A DNA stretch of 21,109 nucleotides from a virus (lineage: Duplodnaviria; Heunggongvirae; Uroviricota; Caudoviricetes). The notes below the pieces were generated by a model that saw nothing but the letters and a program-made list of their open reading frames with translations, had not been told where the DNA came from and did not search any database. Position 1 is the first letter of the stretch; every line of letters starts with the position of its first letter. The stretch is taken from IMG/VR virus record IMGVR_UViG_2695420876_000008. One strand, written 5' to 3'. Below, piece after piece: positions 904-20,863 of this stretch. The position numbers and the translations under genes were made by a program.

Positions 904-1353
904 CGAATTTCTCCCGTGTACAGGAACAGAGTTAAAAAGCCGGAACCGGAATCAAATTACAGGATGGCCATCTGCCAGTGGCTGGTCGTAAAAAAAAGGC
1001 CACGCCATGCGCAGCCGGAAATAAAGGGATAACGATGATAGTTTGAGAAAAACAGAAACAACACTTTTGTGGCAAAGCATGGTGCCGGGTGCCTCCCGGT
1101 GAATTCAGTATCAGCACCTGAATCCGCGATTATCCCATATACCTGGTTGCTGATCGCCCCTCCGCACAGGGGGATTCACCATGCCAGTTTCTTTTAACAA
1201 ACTCCCCGCAAACCAGACAACAGTCAACCGCCTGAATTGTGAGGTATTTAAAAATTTCAACGGGTAACTGATACCCTGCTAATCGCCTGATGCTTTCTTT
1301 TTCAGCAACGGGAAAGCAACAACCACCACACCCACCAGCCGCCCATTTACCAC

Positions 1354-3981: not shown

Positions 3982-5640
3982 TTACTGACTCAGACTGTTT
4001 ATATTTTTCTGGAGTTGGTGCTTTGCCTGCATGATGCGCCAGGCCTCACTGCCTGCCGGTATCTCACGTCGTTCATCACGTTCCTGAGATAAATCAATCG
4101 TTGTTTGTGCGTTTTCAGTGACCTTCTGAACCCGCTGGTGGCCTTTGGCAAACCGGATCAGTTTGTGTCTGATGTAGTTATTTACCTCAGGGGTAATTTC
4201 CATCGGAAAGTTACTCAGTCCGTCAGGCCACTCACCGAACTTTTCCCGGAAAGTGTGAGCACACCATCCGTCACTGACTGGACGCCCCAGCGAAGCACGC
4301 TGGCGCTGATAAAATTTGATCTGACTCCACCAGGACTGTTTCTCTGCCTTCGTCGACTGATGCTGATTTTTACCCAGCTTATTAAGTTTGCGGCTAGTGT
4401 CAGTATCAACGTCTTCACCTCGCAGCGGCTTGTGTCCACATTTCGGGCAAACATAGACGCCTGCTGGCTTCATGTAGTGGCATTGAGGGCATTCATGTGG
4501 CAGTTTTTCGGCCCGTTCCTCAACTGCCCGGCGCGCGCTTTCCTCCATGCCGTCAGACTTACCGGGAAGCTCGTCGTACTCGATTGAATCCGGATAACCC
4601 AAACGGTGCACGGTGCCGCTGTGATCGAAGATAAGGCAGGACTCTTTACCCGGTGCGGTGCGCAGCCCACGCCCGAGAGCCTGCAACCAGCGAATTTCGC
4701 TTTTTGTTGGCCTGGCGTAGATGATGCAACGAACGTCACTATCAAAGCCGGCCACCAGAACGCCCACACTAACGATGATTTTCGTTGCACCGGTTTCAAA
4801 GCGGTGAATGATGGTCTGGCGCTCATCTACCGGAGTGTCGGCGGTCATTACCTCAGCGTTAACACCCGCCAGGTTAAACTGGATTGTCAGATAATTGGCG
4901 TGAGCTACGTTGACGCAGAAAGCGATGGTAGGTAAATCCCGACCATTCTCCAGCCAGTTCTGTACGATGTCGCCCACCAGCGTAGAGCCGCACATGATTT
5001 CAGCCAGCTGTGTTTCGTTGTAATCGCGGCCGTACTCAAGCGAAGATGTGGTTTTAACACCTTTCAGATCCGGCTTAGTTGGCGCGTAAAATTCGTATTT
5101 ACTCAGATCGCCACGCTGGATTAACTCGCCGATGGTGGTCGGCTTAATCAGTCGGTCATAGTATTTGCCCAGGAACGGAGAAAACGGAGTACCCGACAGG
5201 CCAATCACCTTTACGCCTTTGCCGCGCAGACGTTCGATATCCTTCAGGATGCGTTTTTTACGCAGGTGCGCTTCGTCGATAATCAGCAGATCGATATTTT
5301 CAGGAAAAACACGACGAATAAGCGTGTCAGCGCTGGCAATCTGAATTTTCCGGTCCGGATCGTAGTTCGGGTGATCCGCCCAGATATAACCGATTTCATC
5401 TCCAGGTAAACCATACTGCACGAACCGATTAGCCGTCTGACCAATCAGGATGGTGTACGGAACACAGAACAGAACACGCATACCACGGCTGACAAAACCA
5501 GCAACTATGAAGGCTGCCAGACCCGTTTTACCGCTACCTGTTGGCGAGTAAACCATGAAGGTGTCGTTTGCCTTCCAGTCACGGCGCAACATGTTTAACG
5601 CTCGTTCCTGTGCAAAATTCGGCGTGATCGTCAGCTCCAT
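3982..5640 (-). CDS. Superfamily-2 DEAD/DEAH-box helicase, replication module, with C-terminal Cys4 zinc-ribbon
   Basis: Walker A YSPTGSGKTGLA; motif II LLIIDEAH; SGTPF; motif VI QALGRGLR; CPQCH...CPKCGH. SD GGGAG 7 nt upstream of ATG 5640. Confidence 0.85.
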   Translation of the reverse strand: MELTITPNFAQERALNMLRRDWKANDTFMVYSPTGSGKTGLAAFIVAGFVSRGMRVLFCVPYTILIGQTANRFVQYGLPGDEIGYIWADHPNYDPDRKIQIASADTLIRRVFPENIDLLIIDEAHLRKKRILKDIERLRGKGVKVIGLSGTPFSPFLGKYYDRLIKPTTIGELIQRGDLSKYEFYAPTKPDLKGVKTTSSLEYGRDYNETQLAEIMCGSTLVGDIVQNWLENGRDLPTIAFCVNVAHANYLTIQFNLAGVNAEVMTADTPVDERQTIIHRFETGATKIIVSVGVLVAGFDSDVRCIIYARPTKSEIRWLQALGRGLRTAPGKESCLIFDHSGTVHRLGYPDSIEYDELPGKSDGMEESARRAVEERAEKLPHECPQCHYMKPAGVYVCPKCGHKPLRGEDVDTDTSRKLNKLGKNQHQSTKAEKQSWWSQIKFYQRQRASLGRPVSDGWCAHTFREKFGEWPDGLSNFPMEITPEVNNYIRHKLIRFAKGHQRVQKVTENAQTTIDLSQERDERREIPAGSEAWRIMQAKHQLQKNINSLSQ

Positions 5641-9304: not shown

Positions 9305-9697
9305 ATGATCGACAACCGCACCGCCAGCACCATTGACCAGGCATTACAGAAACATGATACACCCGTCGGCCCGTTATTTTTTGTAACACGCCACGGAAGA
9401 ACAAAAAAATGCCTCACCCGAAAAACGGCAATTCGTTACCTAGCATTCTTTATGACCACCCGCGCTTTTGAACGTTCAGGATTCCGACAACGCTATCCTG
9501 ACAAGCGTTTTATCTTCAACAGGAATGAGATATGGAAACGTGGAGAATCAACCACAGAGTATACCCGCGCACACCAGCGAACAATCAGACGACTGCGCAG
9601 ACTCATCGCCAGGAAACAGTATACAGAAAAATGGTTCAGAAAATATGACACATGGAGCGCCGGATATTACGAACTGATGGCAACAAAACCATTCTGA
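9305..9697 (+). CDS. Hypothetical basic protein (130 aa, Arg/Lys-rich C-terminus)
   Basis: ORF MIDNRTASTIDQ...; SD GGGAGA about 11 nt upstream. Confidence 0.45.
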   Translation: MIDNRTASTIDQALQKHDTPVGPLFFVTRHGRTKKCLTRKTAIRYLAFFMTTRAFERSGFRQRYPDKRFIFNRNEIWKRGESTTEYTRAHQRTIRRLRRLIARKQYTEKWFRKYDTWSAGYYELMATKPF

Positions 9698-12652: not shown

Positions 12653-12862
12653 ATGGGGCTGGATTGCGTGCCTATATCAACCTACTGCCGCGACGCGGGA
12701 GAAACGGTTGATGCCGTTAACAAACGGATACAAAGAGGAATATGGAAAGAAGGGGTTCATGTATTAAAAGTCGACGGAGTTAAAGAACGCTGGGTCGACT
12801 TAATAGAGGTTTCAAAATGGGCAAGAAAGAACAAGGATTATTATCTCTGCCAAGAGGAGTAA
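12653..12862 (+). CDS. Excisionase-like protein (Xis candidate)
   Basis: Small ORF immediately upstream of and overlapping the integrase start (classic xis-int arrangement); SD GAGGTGA upstream. Confidence 0.5.
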   Translation: MGLDCVPISTYCRDAGETVDAVNKRIQRGIWKEGVHVLKVDGVKERWVDLIEVSKWARKNKDYYLCQEE

Positions 12863-13942
12863 CTATTCGTAAGCATAAAACTGCTTCAACACTAGTTATC
12901 ACTTTCACATATAAAGGGGTTCTTTGCAGGGAGCCCCTGTCTCGGCTTGAGGCAAATACACGTGGTATTAAATATGCTGAGCGCCTGCTAGGGGAGATAC
13001 AAAATCAGATCGCCAGCGGAACGTTTGAATATGCGAAATATTTCCCCAGTTCCAAAAAACTGGAGTTATTCGGTGTAGTAAAGAAAACCAAAAATATTAA
13101 GTCCTATCTTGATGAATACCTGAAAATTTGCATGAACCGCAATCTGTCGCCGTCAACCATTGGCGGTTACGAAAAATGTCTATCAGCACTATCAGAACTA
13201 CATAAACTACATGTAACAGAATTGACGCCTGCGGTACTAAAAAATTGGATAGCCAGCCGAAAAACTAAGCTGAAAACAATCAGGAATAACCTGTCATTTC
13301 TGCGCAGCGCCATTGATGAGGCTGTAACTGATGGCCTGTTGACTATTAACCCGGTAACTCTTGTCAGCGCCAGCCGGTATCACGTGGTCGACAGGTGCCA
13401 TATATCAGCACTGCAAGTATCAGGAATGGCAGAATCTGTTCCGCTTCGCCTTCAATACAGGGCTACGCAGCTCTGAGCTATGCGCATTACGTTGGACCGA
13501 TATCGACTTTATAGGTAATACAGCGCACATACAGGCGGCCAGTGTCGTAGGGGTACTTAAAGGCACCAAGACAAAAGCCGGTACCCGTAAGGTGGAGCTG
13601 AACAGTGAGGCGCTGGCGGCCCTGCAGGCGCAGAAGCAATACACCTTTATGAAAAGTGAGTTCATATTCAGCGATCCGAAAACGGGAGATCCCTGGACGA
13701 ACGCCGACGCTATCCGTAAAAAAGCATGGGTGCCGACCCTGAAAAAAGCTGGTGTGCGCTACCGTAACCCGTACCAGACGCGCCACACATTCGCCACCAG
13801 ACACATTAGCCAGGGTGTAAACCTTTTCTGGCTTGCCGGGCAGATGGGGCATAAGGGGCCGGAAATGCTGTTCCGCAATTACGGTAAATACCTGGCTGAA
13901 TACGACGGGAAAACCGCAATGGAATCTGGAATGAAGAAGTGA
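12817..13942 (+). pseudogene. Lambda-family tyrosine integrase, split by a +1 frame break around 13365-13400
   Basis: ORF 12817-13476 has an arm-binding-type N-terminus (LPRGVTIRKHKTASTLVITFTYKGVLCREPL) and core-binding region; ORF 13361-13942 in the +1 frame has the catalytic domain (FAFNTGLRSSELCALRWTDIDF, YQTRHTFATRH, GHKGPEMLFRNYGKYL). Confidence 0.8.
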
Positions 13943-13955
13943 TTTGAAGAAAAAA

Positions 13956-13978
13956 CCCGGCAAATGCCGGGTCTTTTT
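13956..13978. terminator. Bidirectional intrinsic terminator between convergent int and the 255-aa gene
   Basis: A-run, CCCGGCA-aa-TGCCGGG hairpin, then TCTTTTT. Confidence 0.6.
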
Positions 13979-13983
13979 GATGG

Positions 13984-14751
13984 TTATTCTGTCGCGCCAC
14001 CTATCGAAACATAATCATGAAATTGATCGTCAATGAGTCGGTCCTTACAGATAACATGTACAATGTGACGACAACAGTTTTCATCATCATACGCACGACC
14101 CCAGCGAACAATCTCATCTACAGACAGATCATTCGCACTCCATGGCAAAGTACCTGAAACGCCACGCGCACCTGGACCAAGTATGTCCATAAATTTCTTC
14201 GTGCGTGAATTGTAGATCCGTACCTCGGCAATTCGAATGATGCTACTAGCCCAAAGAGCACCACCGGCAATACTTTGAATGTTATCGCAGATGAGAAACT
14301 CATGCTTTCGCGCAAGCATTTTATAGATCTCACGCGCCAAACCTGCTGATTGGAAATCCTGTGCGATAACAGCGCTTTTCACTTGCTTTCCGGTCATCAT
14401 CTGACCGTTCTCTTCGATAAAATTAAAGTCGTTGAACTGTATACGACCTATTCTTATCGTTTTGTTATCGTCTACCATATCAAGACCCAAGAGGGTATTG
14501 ACCAGATCCTGCATTGGAACCTTCGAATCAAGAAGGTCACTGCCATAGTCTAAAAAAAAGTCGTCGGTGGAACATCCCAGTTGATACACATCCAAGTAGT
14601 ACTGAAACTCACCAGAACTGACAATGTACTCATCAGCCCTCAGTAAGCCAGCCTCGGCAGTGAAAAAATAGAATGACTCAATAAGACGTTTTTCGCCAAA
14701 TGGCGTAATGTTCAAGTCCTTGTTATATGAAGGTATTAACGCAGGAGCCAT
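13984..14751 (-). CDS. Hypothetical protein (255 aa), second gene of the int-proximal cargo cassette
   Basis: ORF with ATG 14751, 11 nt after the stop of the upstream 113-aa gene; no family recognised. Confidence 0.6.
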   Translation of the reverse strand: MAPALIPSYNKDLNITPFGEKRLIESFYFFTAEAGLLRADEYIVSSGEFQYYLDVYQLGCSTDDFFLDYGSDLLDSKVPMQDLVNTLLGLDMVDDNKTIRIGRIQFNDFNFIEENGQMMTGKQVKSAVIAQDFQSAGLAREIYKMLARKHEFLICDNIQSIAGGALWASSIIRIAEVRIYNSRTKKFMDILGPGARGVSGTLPWSANDLSVDEIVRWGRAYDDENCCRHIVHVICKDRLIDDQFHDYVSIGGATE

Positions 14752-14762
14752 TCAGCAACCTT

Positions 14763-15104
14763 TTAATGGTAGTTAATTTCCCTGTAGTTCTTCTGCATGT
14801 ATAGAGCAATTGCCGCTTCAATTTTCTTCAGCAGATTACTGCTTACATACTGAGGATACTGATCTGCTGGCTTCACAACATAGCGCAATTTTTCTTTGTT
14901 CATGGCGATCTCAGCGAACGGGATCACGTCACCGTCACGAACCTCATTGTTCAATGTCACAATAAACAGCTGACGTGCCGGGGAGACACGATCACTCAGT
15001 CTTCTCACGAAGAACTCGTTTGCTGTGTTTGAGTCAACAAAAGAACTGACGAGTTGAGTCCGACGCTCAATCGTCTGTATCGATCTTCTCGCTACTGTTC
15101 TCAT
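14763..15104 (-). CDS. Hypothetical protein (113 aa), first gene of the int-proximal cargo cassette
   Basis: ATG 15104 with SD GAGGAG 8 nt upstream; no family recognised. Confidence 0.6.
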   Translation of the reverse strand: MRTVARRSIQTIERRTQLVSSFVDSNTANEFFVRRLSDRVSPARQLFIVTLNNEVRDGDVIPFAEIAMNKEKLRYVVKPADQYPQYVSSNLLKKIEAAIALYMQKNYREINYH

Positions 15105-15120
15105 GCTAGTCTCCTCAACA

Positions 15121-15244
15121 CTTCACTGGCTGTGCAGTGAAGGTACAAAAAGCCACTGATGATAACAGCGTCATCAGTGGCCCTTGATGGTGATAACCGC
15201 AGTTACCTAAATAGTATGATATTACCTTACGGGTAATTCTTCAA
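15121..15244 (-). promoter_or_regulatory. Structured leader of the cargo cassette: candidate promoter, terminator-like hairpin with U-tract, and a second hairpin abutting the SD
   Basis: Minus strand: -35 TTGAAG (plus 15239-15244), 17-nt spacer, -10 TATCAT (plus 15216-15221); 10-bp perfect stem CCACTGATGA/TCATCAGTGG (15153-15180) followed by CTTTTT; second stem CTTCACTG/CAGTGAAG (15121-15142) directly upstream of the SD. Confidence 0.4.
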
Positions 15245-15434
15245 CGATTGCTCTGAATTGAATAGTCTTGAAGTGCTATGAACAGCACAAAACAGCGCTA
15301 ATCACCGCCCCAGTGGCGCCTAAACACTTCAAAATGTTGGACAGAATCAGGACGTTAGAGGTACTACAATATGCACGTAAAATGCACGTGAGGTATTTTA
15401 AATTAGAAAAATCATTAATATTCAATTGGTTAAG

Positions 15435-15474
15435 AATTTTTCGGATACGGGTTCAACTCCCGCCAGCTCCACCA
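15435..15474 (+). other. ssrA (tmRNA) 3'-terminal fragment: T-arm plus acceptor 3' strand plus CCA; att-site duplicate, not an intact gene
   Basis: ...CGGATACGGGTTCAACTCCCGCCAGCTCCACCA matches my recollection of the E. coli tmRNA 3' end; no tmRNA 5' body (GGGGCTGATTCTGG...) is present upstream. Confidence 0.6.
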
Positions 15475-15508
15475 CTTTTTAGTTGTTTGAAGTTCAATGA
15501 AGTCTACT

Positions 15509-15542
15509 AAGCCCACACAGCACAAGCTCTGCGGGCTTTTTT
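15509..15542 (+). terminator. Candidate intrinsic terminator downstream of the ssrA fragment
   Basis: AAGCCC...GGGCTT imperfect long hairpin followed by T6. Confidence 0.4.
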
Positions 15543-15639
15543 ACGTCTATTGTCGTCCAGTGAGAATTGCTGAGAACTACGAGTTATGGCACCCTGAATG
15601 GGACCCACTAAGAAGGGTCCAAAAACCGAGGGTCCCAAA

Positions 15640-16869
15640 ATGGCAAAAATCGCTAAGAAGCTCACTGACACTGAAATCAAAAGCACCAAGCCAGCCGATA
15701 AAGAAATCAACTTGTTTGACGGTGATGGTCTGATTCTACGAATCGCTCCTTTGGCGAAAGGAGGCAAGAAAAATTGGTATTTCAGGTATGCAGTACCAGT
15801 GAGCAAGAAAAGAACCAAAATGAGCCTTGGGACATATCCTCACCTTACCCTTGCAAGAGCCAGAGCCTTACGTGATGAATATCTCTCCTTTCTGGCAAAT
15901 GGTGTTGATCCCCAAATCCATAACAACGATAAGGCGAAGGCATTAAAGAGTGCTACTGAGCACACTCTCCAAGCCGTAGCGCGGAAATGGTTAGATGAGA
16001 AGGTAAAGACATCAGGTATCTCACAAGACCATGCAGCAGACATCTGGCGCAGCTTAGAGAGAAATGTCTTTCCCGGTCTGGGTAATGTCCCTATCAATGA
16101 GATCCGACCTAAGCTCTTAAAACAACACCTTGATCCTATTGAGCAACGAGGCGTATTGGAAACTCTACGCCGTATCATTTCACGTCTGAATGAAATCTTC
16201 CGGTGGGCAGCTACTGAAGAACTTATTGAGTTCAACCCGGCTGACAACCTTGGTCAAAGATTCAGTAAACCAAAAAAGCAAAATATGCCTGCCCTTCCCC
16301 CAAGCGAATTGCCAAGGTTTATGGAATCTTTGACGAATGCGTCAATCCGGTTGGAAACACGTATGCTAATTGAATGGCAATTGTTGACATGGGTTCGTCC
16401 GGGTGAAGCCGTTCGCGCAAGGTGGTCTGATATTGATACAACCAACAGCATTTGGAACATTCCTGCTGATTTCATGAAAATGAAAAAGCTTCACAAAGTT
16501 CCTTTGAGTAAAGAAGCTTTGCGCATCCTTGAATTAATGAAATCAATAAGTGGGCATAGAGAATGGGTTTTCCCCAGCATAAAAGCGCCTCTTAATCATA
16601 TGCATGAACAAACAGCCAACGCAGCTATCATCCGAATGGGGTTCGGAGGCGAGCTTGTAGCTCACGGTATGCGTTCTATTGCACGAACAGCGGCAGAGGA
16701 GTCTGGTAAATTCAGAGCTGAAGTTCTTGAGGCAGCGCTTGCCCACTCGAAAAAAGATGAAATTATCGCAGCATACAATCGTGCAGAATATCTGATAGAG
16801 CGACAGAGTTTGATGCAATGGTGGAGTGATTACGTTCAAGCTCAAAGATCAAATGCTCTGGTAGCCTAA
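15640..16869 (+). CDS. P4-family tyrosine integrase (IntA/CP4-57-like, tRNA/tmRNA-site class)
   Basis: MAKIAKKLTDTEIKSTKPADKEINLFDGDGLILRIAP... N-terminal arm-type domain and C-terminal catalytic domain (HGMRSIARTAA, ...AYNRAEYL); lies directly downstream of the ssrA 3' fragment; start at ATG 15640 with SD GAGGG, not the track's 15598. Confidence 0.85.
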   Translation: MAKIAKKLTDTEIKSTKPADKEINLFDGDGLILRIAPLAKGGKKNWYFRYAVPVSKKRTKMSLGTYPHLTLARARALRDEYLSFLANGVDPQIHNNDKAKALKSATEHTLQAVARKWLDEKVKTSGISQDHAADIWRSLERNVFPGLGNVPINEIRPKLLKQHLDPIEQRGVLETLRRIISRLNEIFRWAATEELIEFNPADNLGQRFSKPKKQNMPALPPSELPRFMESLTNASIRLETRMLIEWQLLTWVRPGEAVRARWSDIDTTNSIWNIPADFMKMKKLHKVPLSKEALRILELMKSISGHREWVFPSIKAPLNHMHEQTANAAIIRMGFGGELVAHGMRSIARTAAEESGKFRAEVLEAALAHSKKDEIIAAYNRAEYLIERQSLMQWWSDYVQAQRSNALVA

Positions 16870-17395: not shown

Positions 17396-19144
17396 TTATG
17401 GTAGCATCATTGATACATAATCCACACCAATCCTTGAGCTATACTGAGACGCTATAGCCTGATATCTTTCTGCATAACCAGTTCTCAGTTGAGATTTAAG
17501 TTTGAGTCGGACAGGAACATTTTGCACGTTGCCATCCATATTACTTAAAAACACGGCAGAAATAATATTTTTTTCTTCGCCATCAACTGTTGTTCCATGA
17601 TTCAACACCACCATATAATCAACAACAGGAAGCGTTTTATCCCCTTCGAAAATAGAGAGATATTTTCTTTGATTTTTATGCATTACATATATATATTTCG
17701 AATGTTCAGCAAATGGCAATGCTTTACTCTGACTGGCGTTAAAAAGCTCCAGAACTTTAATGAGCCTGTGCGGACTTAATCTTACATGGTGAGGGTCGTT
17801 ACCCTGAGTAGGAACCAAATCACATGCCGCAGATACACATAAATACCATTTGTTCGACTCTGTATCAAAGAAAATAGTGCCAGTAGAAATATGACCATCT
17901 TCAAAATTCTTTGAAGACAAATTCATATTTAAAGCATGATACATTTCGTGATAAGTATCATTATTTGATGGCAGATCCATTTTTGAAGAGCAATATTGGA
18001 GCAATGCAGCAACTCCGCTGTTAGCGTATTCATTTGAATAGCTATCAAAAACACTTTTGATAAATTCATCCAGCGTATTATTATTTTTAAGTCTTTGATA
18101 AAGCTCTTCTGATAAATTACCAAATACAAAGTCAATATTTCTACATCTAATATCAGGCGAGTCTGATTTTAATATCTCATTTAACCACGCAGCTTGACCG
18201 TAATGATCGTTAGCCAAATGATTTACAAAAGATAAAGCCTCAGCTTCGATTGCATTCTGAATTTCAGATTTTATTAACTGATAATAAGATGGTTTCCATT
18301 CAATGAGAGAATCATTGAGAGTTTGCCAAATCCTATCTCCATCGTTTTCATGATCATCTTGAACCTTATGAAATAGGGAGACAAAGATATTACCACATTG
18401 AATCCATTTTACTCCGCTTTCATCACCCCGAATGACATTGCCAGATGTGTTGCTAGAAATAATTGCATTTCTAGACACAGCATATTCTGCAATCATTTTT
18501 GCAATGAAGTTTTTATCCTTTTGTTCCTCCAACACAGCATCATCATGTATTAATCTTTTAATTCTTCTACAAGGCTTACTGTCTTTAATATAGGCTATTG
18601 TTTCATCTCTTGTGAGAGCTTTATTACCATTATCATTTAAGTTCGGTAATACAACGTCTTCCCAATAACTTTGGACATCTTCATTATCGTAGTCAATGAT
18701 CAAGCTGTTGATATCCAGAGCACCTTTGAGAGTCGATGATATCTGCATCCAAACCGTTTCTAAATTCTCTCTAGTATATATTACAATCATATTTAAATGA
18801 TCGGAGTCTTTCAAATCTTGTAATAGTTTAAGTGTTTTATCAGGTGCATTATTATCAAGATGATAATCTACAATAATAAGATCTGATTTTCTAATCCGAT
18901 CCACATCGAAATTAACAGAACCATTGTCAACATCACAAATCATATTTTTAGATTGAAAAAAGCTCTCAAGAGTAGCGGCTCGTTTAGATGAGTCAATTTT
19001 GTTGTAGTCTAAATCAACTTCGTTATTCAACGCCCTGATTGATTCAGAATACGTCAGAAAATCGTCATCAATCATGACAACGGAACGAATTGCATTTTCG
19101 CAGAAAGTTTTCTGGACAAGAGAATTATAATTTGCCACTGTCAT
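17396..19144 (-). CDS. Receiver (REC-like) domain protein fused to a ~430-aa C-terminal domain of unknown function; no DNA-binding output domain recognised
   Basis: N-terminal REC-like motifs VVMIDDD, DLIIVDYHL, MIVIYT; large uncharacterised C-terminal region. Start at ATG 19144 preferred (SD GGAG upstream; one nt after the kinase stop) over the track's 19162. Confidence 0.7.
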   Translation of the reverse strand: MTVANYNSLVQKTFCENAIRSVVMIDDDFLTYSESIRALNNEVDLDYNKIDSSKRAATLESFFQSKNMICDVDNGSVNFDVDRIRKSDLIIVDYHLDNNAPDKTLKLLQDLKDSDHLNMIVIYTRENLETVWMQISSTLKGALDINSLIIDYDNEDVQSYWEDVVLPNLNDNGNKALTRDETIAYIKDSKPCRRIKRLIHDDAVLEEQKDKNFIAKMIAEYAVSRNAIISSNTSGNVIRGDESGVKWIQCGNIFVSLFHKVQDDHENDGDRIWQTLNDSLIEWKPSYYQLIKSEIQNAIEAEALSFVNHLANDHYGQAAWLNEILKSDSPDIRCRNIDFVFGNLSEELYQRLKNNNTLDEFIKSVFDSYSNEYANSGVAALLQYCSSKMDLPSNNDTYHEMYHALNMNLSSKNFEDGHISTGTIFFDTESNKWYLCVSAACDLVPTQGNDPHHVRLSPHRLIKVLELFNASQSKALPFAEHSKYIYVMHKNQRKYLSIFEGDKTLPVVDYMVVLNHGTTVDGEEKNIISAVFLSNMDGNVQNVPVRLKLKSQLRTGYAERYQAIASQYSSRIGVDYVSMMLP

Positions 19145-19145
19145 A

Positions 19146-19982
19146 TTAGAACTCCACTCCATTGAACTGGATCACAAAATTAGCGCCATCTTTTATTAAA
19201 TAGTTATCGCCTTCATCAGGTTCTGAATACCATATTTTATGATGTGCAACAGCAAGGTTTTCTCGACATAGATACAGACCTACCCCATGTCCATTTGCTC
19301 TTTTGCTATAAAATAGTTCAAATAGTCGCGGGATATCATCGGTATCAATTGCCGGACCAGAATTTGCTATGATAACCAAAGAATTCACAAAACCAATCTT
19401 TATGAGCCTATTATTTGACAGACTGACCCAATACATTGCATTGTTGATAATATTAGTAAAAACAGGATAGATCCTTGATGGTATATCTGTTATTGCGATT
19501 TGCTTAAACTCTTCACTAAATTCAATAGTTATTCGTTGCCGTTCGAAACGCTCCCCAAAGAACTTCAGGACATAATCCATGATATTTTTTCCAGTTATTC
19601 TCTGCCTGGATTGATAACCTGATATTTTCAAAGGTGATAAGAAACGTATTTGTTGAGTAAGCGATCTGTGAGCATTTAACGCCAATGAAAAACCAGGGTG
19701 TTCTTTTACAGAAGTAGGAAGAGAGTTTAGTCCTCTGGTTACCATAGAATCCATTTCTTCAAGTTCATGAGATATTATCTCAACACTAATACCTAACTGT
19801 GCAAGCGCGTTTAAACTTTTAGCTTTTTCTTCAAAATATGAGCGTTCTTCTTCAGATAATGAGAATGCTGAATCTAAGTTTATACCTTCAAATAATCTAT
19901 CGAGACCTTTTATTATTGATTGATATTTGAAAGTTAGGGTATCAACTGACTCAACATATAAACTATCGAGCAAATTAAACAC
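19146..19982 (-). CDS. Histidine kinase core (DHp H-box + HATPase_c), cytoplasmic; start uncertain
   Basis: H-box ISHELEEMDS; N-box YPVFTNIINNAMYW; G1-like IANSGPAIDTDD; G2 GHGVGLYL. No ATG near the 5' end (track start is GTG); the frame stays open upstream to 20111. Confidence 0.7.
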   Translation of the reverse strand: MFNLLDSLYVESVDTLTFKYQSIIKGLDRLFEGINLDSAFSLSEEERSYFEEKAKSLNALAQLGISVEIISHELEEMDSMVTRGLNSLPTSVKEHPGFSLALNAHRSLTQQIRFLSPLKISGYQSRQRITGKNIMDYVLKFFGERFERQRITIEFSEEFKQIAITDIPSRIYPVFTNIINNAMYWVSLSNNRLIKIGFVNSLVIIANSGPAIDTDDIPRLFELFYSKRANGHGVGLYLCRENLAVAHHKIWYSEPDEGDNYLIKDGANFVIQFNGVEF

Positions 19983-20059
19983 ATTTTCAATTTGTGAATC
20001 ATTATCTATTGAATCAACAACTGATATAGTTTTAGCATAATAATCACTTCGATCAACCT

Positions 20060-20863
20060 TTATTTCATCGGCCCATTTTTTAAAAGAGAATGTATCTTCT
20101 CCTCTATCGTGTTATTAAACTTAGTTAGTTTAGAATTAATAATACCTTGATTTTTTTCAAGGTGATTTTTCGCTGACAATGAAGGCTCAAGTTTATTTAA
20201 TTCAGAATCAAGTTTATTAATTGCTAACTTCATTTGTAGAATATACGCAGAGAACTCATTAAATTTATCTCTGTAGTCTCTATATTTCTCTTCATACATT
20301 CCAAGTTTTGGAGGTTTGATAGGCGTTTTAATTTCACTGCGCAACGCATCTAAGTTTGTAAGATCACTGTCTATAATTTTAAGATAGTTTAAATCTAACG
20401 AACCATCAGTTTTATCAAGCTTAGTTTTCAGCCTTTTAACAGCCTCCAAGGAAGCATCAAGAACTGGTGTCTGATTCTTCAAAGCTTCTGAAAAACTTTT
20501 TTGTGTTGATTTTCGAGCTTGTTGTTGAGCAGATTTTCTTAACTCTTTTTCACGCTTAACTTGTTCTAAAAGCTCTTTACGGTCATCAGAACGTGAACCA
20601 AAAAATCTATCAGCAAGTTCAGTTAACAAATTAGATATAATAGTTTTCAGTTCTCTTGCAGCCTGGTTTCTTATGAATCCCTCTCTCCCCGACTTATCTT
20701 TCAGCTCTTTATTACTGGATTGAGTAATTCCAATATAACCAAAAATCCTTCTATTAGACCAATAATATCGCCCTGCATTCCATGAACGTCTTTCTTCTAT
20801 CTGGAAGAAATCATTATCTACTCGACCATAAGGTAATACTCTCAAGCTATCCCTAAAAATCAT
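20060..20863 (-). CDS. Coiled-coil-rich protein (267 aa); probably the N-terminal/linker part of the adjacent sensor kinase, itself likely 5'-truncated
   Basis: ORF starts at ATG 20863, but the frame is open for 42 more codons upstream, up to the IS3 junction at 20985; K/E-rich heptad-like sequence; separated from the kinase frame at the run CTTTTAAAAAATGGG (20071-20085). Confidence 0.5.
   Translation of the reverse strand: MIFRDSLRVLPYGRVDNDFFQIEERRSWNAGRYYWSNRRIFGYIGITQSSNKELKDKSGREGFIRNQAARELKTIISNLLTELADRFFGSRSDDRKELLEQVKREKELRKSAQQQARKSTQKSFSEALKNQTPVLDASLEAVKRLKTKLDKTDGSLDLNYLKIIDSDLTNLDALRSEIKTPIKPPKLGMYEEKYRDYRDKFNEFSAYILQMKLAINKLDSELNKLEPSLSAKNHLEKNQGIINSKLTKFNNTIEEKIHSLLKNGPMK

Follow-up and report, generated by a model that had tools for sequence, protein, structure and literature searches.

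Type II toxin–antitoxin systems with a GNAT toxin, such as TacAT, AtaRT, KacAT, and ItaRT, are bicistronic modules in which a small gene comes first and the gene for a GNAT-fold protein second; they are located on mobile elements and have palindromes in their promoters. All of these features recur in a pair of genes near the right end of a lambdoid prophage in IMG/VR record IMGVR_UViG_2695420876_000008 (Duplodnaviria; Heunggongvirae; Uroviricota; Caudoviricetes). The whole 21,109-nucleotide stretch that was analyzed is referred to as the window, and coordinates are window coordinates throughout, except where a comparison locus (L number) is named. The pair encodes a small protein of 113 residues and a large protein of 255 residues, and it departs from the GNAT type II systems in several respects. 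The upstream protein is not an antitoxin of the ribbon-helix-helix (RHH)/DUF1778 type but, as modeled, a β-rich GNAT-like half-domain. The large protein is ~80 residues longer than the toxins of ~160-180 residues, is acidic (isoelectric point (pI) 4.8, net charge −12; family median pI 4.9), and lies below every Pfam GNAT threshold, and the leader preceding the genes harbors a terminator. With neither an RHH (DUF1778/TacA) antitoxin nor a compact basic GNAT toxin, the pair falls outside the GNAT/RHH type II class.

The second group of closely comparable elements is formed by classical morons and by the cargo found between int and att, for example lom and bor of lambda, lit of e14, and old and tin of P2. 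Like these, the pair is a promoter-gene-terminator insertion between conserved phage genes at a variable site. In contrast to them, it comprises two genes, encodes proteins of families unrelated to theirs, has an extra terminator between promoter and genes, and is found also in tail operons and plasmids. Type III toxin–antitoxin systems (ToxIN) share the succession of a promoter, a short structured RNA, an intrinsic terminator, and then protein genes; however, no tandem-repeat RNA array is present here, and two protein genes take the place of a single endoribonuclease. AcrVA5 is likewise a GNAT-related protein on a mobile element, but no sequence relationship to it is detected, it is encoded by a single gene, and the position of the present cassette is unsuited to early expression. 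In its working, the pair is most like the GNAT/RHH type II toxin–antitoxin systems and the classical morons, while its partner protein and its leader are without precedent for a GNAT-superfamily protein in a two-gene mobile module. The favored reading, to which a probability of roughly one in three is assigned, is that of a toxin–antitoxin-like addiction or abortive-infection/defense system with a GNAT-fold effector.

The gene pair and its products

Both genes are on the minus strand, the large gene at 13984-14751 and the small gene directly upstream of it at 14763-15104, with a spacing of 11 nucleotides and a separate Shine-Dalgarno sequence for each. That of the small gene, GAGGAG at 15111-15116 (minus strand), was read from the sequence, and a GGAG-type motif is kept at this position in the aligned leaders. 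An earlier note on this DNA had described two open reading frames (ORFs) of 113 and 255 residues that run opposite to the integrase gene int, between it and the 3′ fragment of ssrA, and this description is accurate to the exact coordinate.

Both ORFs are genuine genes, because they match PHROG families (listed as of unknown function) with E values of 1.4e-59 for the large and 8.7e-26 for the small protein, have homologs at 40-99% identity in many genera, with conservation and fixed synteny down to ~30%, and show low ratios of nonsynonymous to synonymous substitution (dN/dS). In comparison with relatives of 83-94% amino-acid identity, the small gene has a dN/dS of 0.09-0.14 and the large gene one of ~0.02, the latter with a dS that is saturated in two of three comparisons. 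Judged from these sequence comparisons, both genes are under strong purifying selection.

The large gene contains a T8 homopolymer at 14552-14559 (minus strand; A8 on the plus strand). This tract is T7 in PhiR12 phages (L003, around position 904) and in two IMG/VR contigs (L039 and L040), and the resulting frameshift splits the large gene after residue 66 and leaves the small gene intact. Phase variation at the tract was considered and rejected: the tract is lineage-specific, is not conserved outside the E. coli lineage, and thus is an accidental slippage site. All disrupted copies seen (PhiR12, L039, L040, and L019) are hit in the large gene and never in the small one, either by the T7 frameshift or, in Xenorhabdus indica, by a split of the gene. 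The small gene appeared truncated in L022, L023, and L060, but these are merely alternative gene calls, and the ORF is intact. Literature searches on PhiR12, GNAT proteins in prophage defense, lambdoid hotspots, SSU5 accessory genes, and pMMD brought to light no study that characterizes either protein.

Neither protein gives a significant match in Pfam or NCBIfam, and PADLOC-DB v2.0 yields zero families for either at E ≤ 1. Searches of PDB sequences with single-family and with widened profiles likewise return nothing significant for either protein, and neither matches any ordinary phage structural or regulatory family. The earlier note had called neither protein recognizable. At the level of Pfam and NCBIfam families this is so for both; at the level of the fold, however, the large protein is recognizable as a GNAT.

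The AlphaFold2 model of the large protein, built on a 29-sequence alignment, has a predicted local distance difference test score (pLDDT) of 77 and a predicted template modeling score (pTM) of 0.76. It displays the secondary-structure order of the GNAT fold, including the core β4-α3-β5-α4-β6-β7, the N-terminal strands, and α1/α2, together with two extra N-terminal strands and an insertion at residues 192-229 that is poorly modeled. On the basis of this model, the large protein is a divergent GNAT (acyl-CoA N-acyltransferase) fold. The profile of its family reaches Pfam-verified Acetyltransf_1 proteins over β4-α3-β5 with E values of ~1e-5 to 1e-4 in a search of 1.84 billion sequences. The curated GNAT thresholds are not attained, as a few family members give only sub-threshold Pfam GNAT matches (E 0.04-0.1), and a BFVD fold search returns only weak NAT_SF matches. 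The best structural neighbors of both the large and the small protein are the N-terminal, ribosomal-protein, and histone acetyltransferases Naa40/NatD, RimJ, RimL, and Hat1, several of which work with auxiliary subunits; sequence identity to these enzymes is only 6-14%.

The segment Q134-S-A-G137-L-A139 of the large protein is of the Q/R-x-x-G-x-G/A type that defines motif A, the pyrophosphate-binding loop of GNATs between β4 and α3, and it is a plausible coenzyme A (CoA)-binding motif; G137 and A139 are kept in close relatives. The sequence C-D156-N-x-Q159-S follows β5. Across the wider family, the invariant residues are P3, K11, Q123, Y143, D156, Q159, W167, and W204. A Cys/His catalytic triad or zinc site formed by C60, C155, C227, and H229 was rejected, these residues not being conserved in the wider family.

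The model of the small protein (pLDDT 85 for the best of five, 64-76 for the others) consists of a five-stranded sheet and a long C-terminal helix. It resembles a truncated, β-rich half of a GNAT, and at 113 residues the protein can only be a partial GNAT-like domain. The small protein is basic (pI 9.8; range 9.3-9.8) with a conserved Arg-rich N-terminus, and R35, I48, A64, E65, Q82, Y83, P84, and I95 are invariant in its family. Paralogy between the small and the large protein was examined and discarded (hhalign probability 1%).

Extent and control region of the cargo unit

The segment that varies relative to prophages with the same integrase spans ~13915-15327 (1.4 kb, minus strand). Homology to two loci with a DUF4760 gene (L065 and L067) and to an empty-site locus (L066) ends at ~13914-13920 and resumes at 15328 in the empty site or at 15357-15367 in the DUF4760 loci. 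Among 5,426 complete E. coli genomes, 108 encode an ssrA-type integrase, and just 10 of the 108 have the cassette. A DUF4760 gene stands behind the near-identical int (99.8%) of O26 strains and the related int (89%) of O55 strains, and in E. coli MS 115-1 only ~29 nucleotides follow int before homology resumes. Because different cargo or none is found behind the same int, the site is a genuine cargo hotspot. The earlier note had placed a two-gene cassette at such a position; the pair and the hotspot are as claimed, but the functional unit is larger than the two ORFs and extends over the whole variable segment. The alternative cargo of the hotspot, a DUF4760 protein of ~302 residues, is encoded at 5659-6567 of L065 and 5678-6601 of L067, in E. 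coli O26 and O55 prophages, and has no PADLOC match.

With its own predicted promoter and its terminator, its presence or absence between conserved neighbors, and its occurrence in at least four unrelated insertion contexts, the segment is an autonomous moron. The order within the unit is a σ70 promoter with palindromes, a leader with a terminator hairpin, the small gene, the large gene, and a strong bidirectional terminator.

The predicted σ70-type promoter, TTGAAG-17-TATCAT at 15216-15244 (minus strand), was located by a promoter scan and is the sole promoter-like site on either strand of 13800-15600. Its −35 and −10 elements hold their places in aligned loci from Atlantibacter, Buttiauxella, Yersinia, and Pantoea. 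Two palindromes accompany it on the same strand. TTACC-CGTAA-GGTAA lies in the promoter spacer at 15223-15237, and GGTAAC-TGCG-GTTATC follows at 15192-15207, immediately after the transcription start that is predicted near 15209; it may serve as an operator or form a hairpin at the 5′ end of the RNA. The form GATAAC-N4-GTTATC is kept in Atlantibacter, Leclercia, Buttiauxella, and metagenome-assembled loci.

The leader is 111 nucleotides long and folds into three hairpins with a minimum free energy of −40 kcal/mol (z = −3.4). One of these, at 15147-15181 on the same strand as the genes, resembles an intrinsic terminator (GCCACTGATGA...TCATCAGTGGC plus U5) and is supported by a terminator scan, by the fold, and by an inverted repeat. 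Of 22 non-identical leaders, 19 have such a hairpin with a T5-T8 run right behind it. The CCAC/GTGG base of its stem is conserved, and the upper stems vary in sequence but remain paired. It is absent from the leaders of Photorhabdus, Xenorhabdus, and Buttiauxella; those of Photorhabdus and Xenorhabdus contain other palindromes instead, such as TATCAC-N5-GTGATA. The hairpin could act as an attenuator or give rise to a short (~60-nucleotide) small RNA (sRNA). Hairpin 3, identified by folding at 15121-15142 (minus strand), lies between the U-run and the Shine-Dalgarno sequence; most loci have a hairpin of differing sequence at this position, with individual z-scores that are weak. Leaders were folded sequence by sequence, since RNAalifold on a MAFFT alignment, which is not structure-aware, was uninformative.

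No Rfam family is found in the leader, either in a gathering-threshold scan of the whole window or in a permissive scan of 14900-15600, in which the only matches are tmRNA (transfer-messenger RNA) and IsrM fragments at attR. A type III RNA antitoxin array is ruled out, as there are no tandem repeats within 13900-15500. A conserved leader peptide overlapping the terminator was also rejected. Visual reading of the aligned leaders shows that in other loci its frame is either closed or runs into the small gene, and the apparent similarity is a consequence of nucleotide conservation.

The unit is closed by a bidirectional intrinsic terminator (AAAAAACCCGGCA / TGCCGGGTCTTTT) at 13950-13977, which was found by a terminator scan and as inverted repeat I3 and has a T-run on each strand. 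A strong terminator directly follows the large gene in almost all loci inspected. The earlier note had predicted both a bidirectional terminator on the int side and a structured leader belonging to the cassette itself, and this stem and the three leader hairpins agree with it.

Spread of the pair and its prophage setting

The loci examined comprised 16 from species-representative genomes, 6 from assemblies, 34 from IMG/VR (one of which breaks off upstream of the large gene, where its contig ends), and others from phage records. In every complete locus (~60), the small gene is followed by the large gene with a gap of 11-37 nucleotides, even at ~30% identity. No fusion of the small protein (Rosetta-stone) occurs among 110 relatives.

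Nearly all carriers of the pair are mobile elements, and the contexts in which it is found are diverse. In lambdoid prophages of Escherichia and Atlantibacter, it occupies the int-attR junction. In Yersinia siphovirus-type prophages, it lies between the major tail protein gene and the tail-assembly-chaperone and tape-measure genes, and in a Pantoea myovirus-type prophage it is located within the baseplate cluster. In the phage-plasmid SSU5 and its relatives, it is placed between the lysis genes and parA. Further copies reside on Acinetobacter plasmids, including the 10-kb pMMD and others of 110-145 kb (hhalign probability 97% for the small and 99% for the large protein), and in Photorhabdus islands that have no evident phage genes. 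Wherever the cassette was inspected in a phage context, it had the same orientation as the late genes.

By tblastn, 375 plasmid records encode relatives of the large protein, with Klebsiella, Acinetobacter, E. coli, and Enterobacter as the main hosts; the enterobacterial plasmid records sampled are SSU5-like phage-plasmids of ~100-120 kb. The family of the large protein is narrow, with 56 representatives in 1.84 billion clustered proteins, some of the weakest of which are generic GNATs. A 99%-identical cassette with both genes intact occupies the corresponding site in an evolved K-12 strain carrying phage Nef. Nef is an active 46-kb phage that was acquired at ssrA by evolved K-12 in the mouse gut (PMC6731689). 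By this distribution, the cassette has spread by horizontal transfer among temperate phages, phage-plasmids, and plasmids of Enterobacterales and Acinetobacter.

Two of these settings show further detail. Photorhabdus akhurstii has two diverged copies of the pair in tandem (L014, 3967-5039 and 5633-6711), outside any obvious prophage. The copies lie between a gene for an HrpA-like helicase and genes resembling those for Hcp and type VI secretion system (T6SS) effectors, these neighbors being named from N-terminal sequences only. pMMD (L061) contains three XerC/D-like pdif sites, at 2879-2902, 5007-5030, and 9506-9529, two of which bracket blaOXA-24. The pair sits in the segment adjoining that of blaOXA-24, alongside helix-turn-helix (HTH) and Arc-family genes, and its mobility as a pdif-bracketed unit was considered and set aside, as the three sites do not cleanly bracket it.

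The prophage of the window is a lambdoid one integrated at ssrA, and its nearest relative is found in E. coli E110019. Its lambdoid tyrosine integrase gene, int, lies at 12817-13942 on the plus strand, opposite to the gene pair. Compared with the intact 392-aa gene of E. coli PV16-126, this int is a pseudogene, in which a 53-bp deletion near 13396 splits the gene into two ORFs. The same deletion is present in IMG/VR contig IMGVR_UViG_2695420503_000016 (L042). Given the split int, the prophage is probably unable to excise by itself.

The right end of the prophage is marked by the last 27 nucleotides of ssrA (CGGGTTCAACTCCCGCCAGCTCCACCA), which form the attR core at 15448-15474 (plus strand). 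This fragment, whose presence the earlier note had asserted, is borne out by a partial Rfam tmRNA match with its end at 15474 and by the loss of homology with other genomes bearing the same prophage end or cassette exactly at its final position, 15474. From this stop it follows that the cassette is inside the prophage, ~340 nucleotides from attR. In the annotation of L001, the late operon of the prophage is on the minus strand and heads toward attL. By analogy with lambdoid genome organization, excision would place the cassette just downstream of the late operon across attP and in the same direction.

Several other features of the window lie outside the cargo unit. Within the prophage, a full-length match to the sRNA STnc100 (Rfam RF02076, 108 bits) is located at 1041-1213 (minus strand). 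Immediately following the ssrA fragment, where the next island joins, a partial match to the sRNA IsrM is found at 15465-15542 (plus strand; 53 bits against a gathering score of 376). Beyond the fragment, at 15598-16869, there is a second integrase of the P4/CP4-57 type, and behind it, at 17396-20863 (minus strand), the island past attR encodes a 588-aa protein with a Response_reg_2 domain (PF19192) and a protein with HEF_HK and HATPase_c domains. The latter is apparently in two ORFs (19146-19982 and 20060-20863), which correspond to a single 572-aa ATP-binding protein in PV16-126. This island pair has no PADLOC match and looks like a conflict-system-type pair.

Candidate functions of the module

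The toxin–antitoxin-like reading is favored because the bicistronic layout of a small and then a large gene is combined with a palindromic promoter and an apparent need for attenuation; because the pair occurs on small plasmids, by partition genes, at prophage ends, and in variable islands; and because GNAT toxins are known and disrupted copies are hit in the large gene only. The mechanism proposed builds on what is established, namely, the gene pair, its mobility, its hotspot, the folds, and the anatomy of the leader. The large GNAT-fold protein would be a toxic, acyl-CoA-dependent effector that transfers an acyl group to a cationic cellular target. The small basic protein would act as its cognate neutralizer, presumably by forming a complex with it, and possibly also as an autorepressor that binds the promoter palindromes as operators. 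The leader terminator would hold basal expression low by attenuation, and Q-antiterminated late transcripts could read into the cassette across attP after excision. A role in defense, at which the earlier note had no more than hinted, is putative.

Several observations weigh against this assignment. Neither an RHH nor an HTH DNA-binding fold is found in the small protein by its predicted model or by domain and structure searches, and its invariant polar residues (R35, E65, Q82, and Y83) are as compatible with an enzymatic or binding subunit as with an antitoxin. tRNA-acetylating GNAT toxins are basic, so that the acidic large protein has the wrong charge for a tRNA toxin. In the wider alignment, the glycine of motif A is replaced in many distant family members, and the invariant residues of the large family, as read from its sequences, are not a textbook GNAT catalytic set. 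Matches are wanting in PADLOC, Pfam, and NCBIfam alike, and the asymmetry of the disruptions amounts to only two independent events. The co-orientation of the cassette with late genes is equally compatible with a late-acting modification enzyme.

Such an enzyme is at the center of an alternative that is nearly as likely, in which the pair forms a non-toxic heteromeric acetyltransferase composed of a catalytic GNAT-fold protein and a small auxiliary or substrate-presenting subunit. Its substrate would be a cationic molecule of host or phage, for instance a polyamine, an aminoglycoside-like compound, or the N-terminus or a lysine of a protein. The enzyme would thereby bring about lysogenic conversion, superinfection exclusion, or a late-stage modification. 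GNATs acting on polycations typically have an acidic surface charge, and the charge of the large protein suits this proposal, as do the invariant polar residues in both proteins, the orientation shared with late genes, and the intact state of the pair in the highly active phage Nef. However, the pair is present also on the 10-kb Acinetobacter plasmid and in non-phage islands, and any target of the acetyltransferase must therefore be cellular and widely conserved. The attenuating terminator and the operator-like palindromes suggest a need to limit expression tightly, and the small partner is too short for a functional GNAT.

The replacement of motif A residues within the family, together with the pI of 9.3-9.8 and the conserved Arg-rich N-terminus of the small protein, would speak for a regulatory or pseudo-enzyme pair. 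The small protein would then be a nucleic-acid-binding regulator acting on the palindromes or on RNA, and the GNAT-fold protein an acyl-CoA sensor or sequestering partner without transferase activity. The conservation of the promoter palindromes agrees with this arrangement, but the small protein has no recognizable DNA-binding fold, and D156, Q159, and Y143 are invariant near the usual GNAT active-site region, which looks catalytic. Such a pair is considered unlikely.

A counter-defense (anti-immunity) module, in which the GNAT-fold enzyme acetylates a host immune protein with the small protein as its cofactor, is a shade more doubtful still. Precedent is afforded by AcrVA5, a GNAT-fold anti-CRISPR that inactivates Cas12a by acetylation; the near-exclusive carriage of the pair by mobile elements fits, and late read-through could express the cassette. 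Genes of this kind are normally early, whereas the cassette is placed within late operons or at their far end and has its own lysogeny-type promoter, and its presence beside T6SS genes in chromosomal islands and on tiny plasmids is atypical for anti-defense genes. Finally, decaying or chance ORFs without current function, which the pseudogene int next to the pair and the frameshifted large gene of one lineage might suggest, are effectively refuted by a dN/dS well below 1 for both genes, by cross-genus conservation at 30-99% identity with fixed synteny, and by the intact genes of the active phage Nef.

Under the toxin–antitoxin-like reading, the pair may, tentatively, found an undescribed class of two-component addiction or anti-phage modules. 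In this class, an acidic, atypical GNAT-fold acyltransferase would be checked by a "half-GNAT" partner rather than by a DNA-binding antitoxin, with a conserved promoter-proximal attenuator and a possible antiterminated late override in the lytic cycle. As a moron, such a module would spread through lambdoid phages, plasmids of Acinetobacter, and phage-plasmids of the SSU5 type, which number in the hundreds among clinical plasmids of Klebsiella, E. coli, and Enterobacter.

Nothing in these findings overturns expectations, and the candidate is clean and well delimited. The pair is common in clinically relevant phage-plasmids and is present in Nef, a phage sweeping through E. coli populations in the mouse gut, yet it has no name, Pfam family, or entry in a defense database. 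As a self-contained unit of 1.4 kb with a conserved leader terminator, it offers a tractable example of attenuated moron expression. If the module is a toxin–antitoxin or defense system, it would represent a new GNAT-based mechanism with a new kind of partner and would help to explain the stability or competitiveness of the elements that carry it; if it is a modification enzyme, it would constitute a widespread lysogenic-conversion function.

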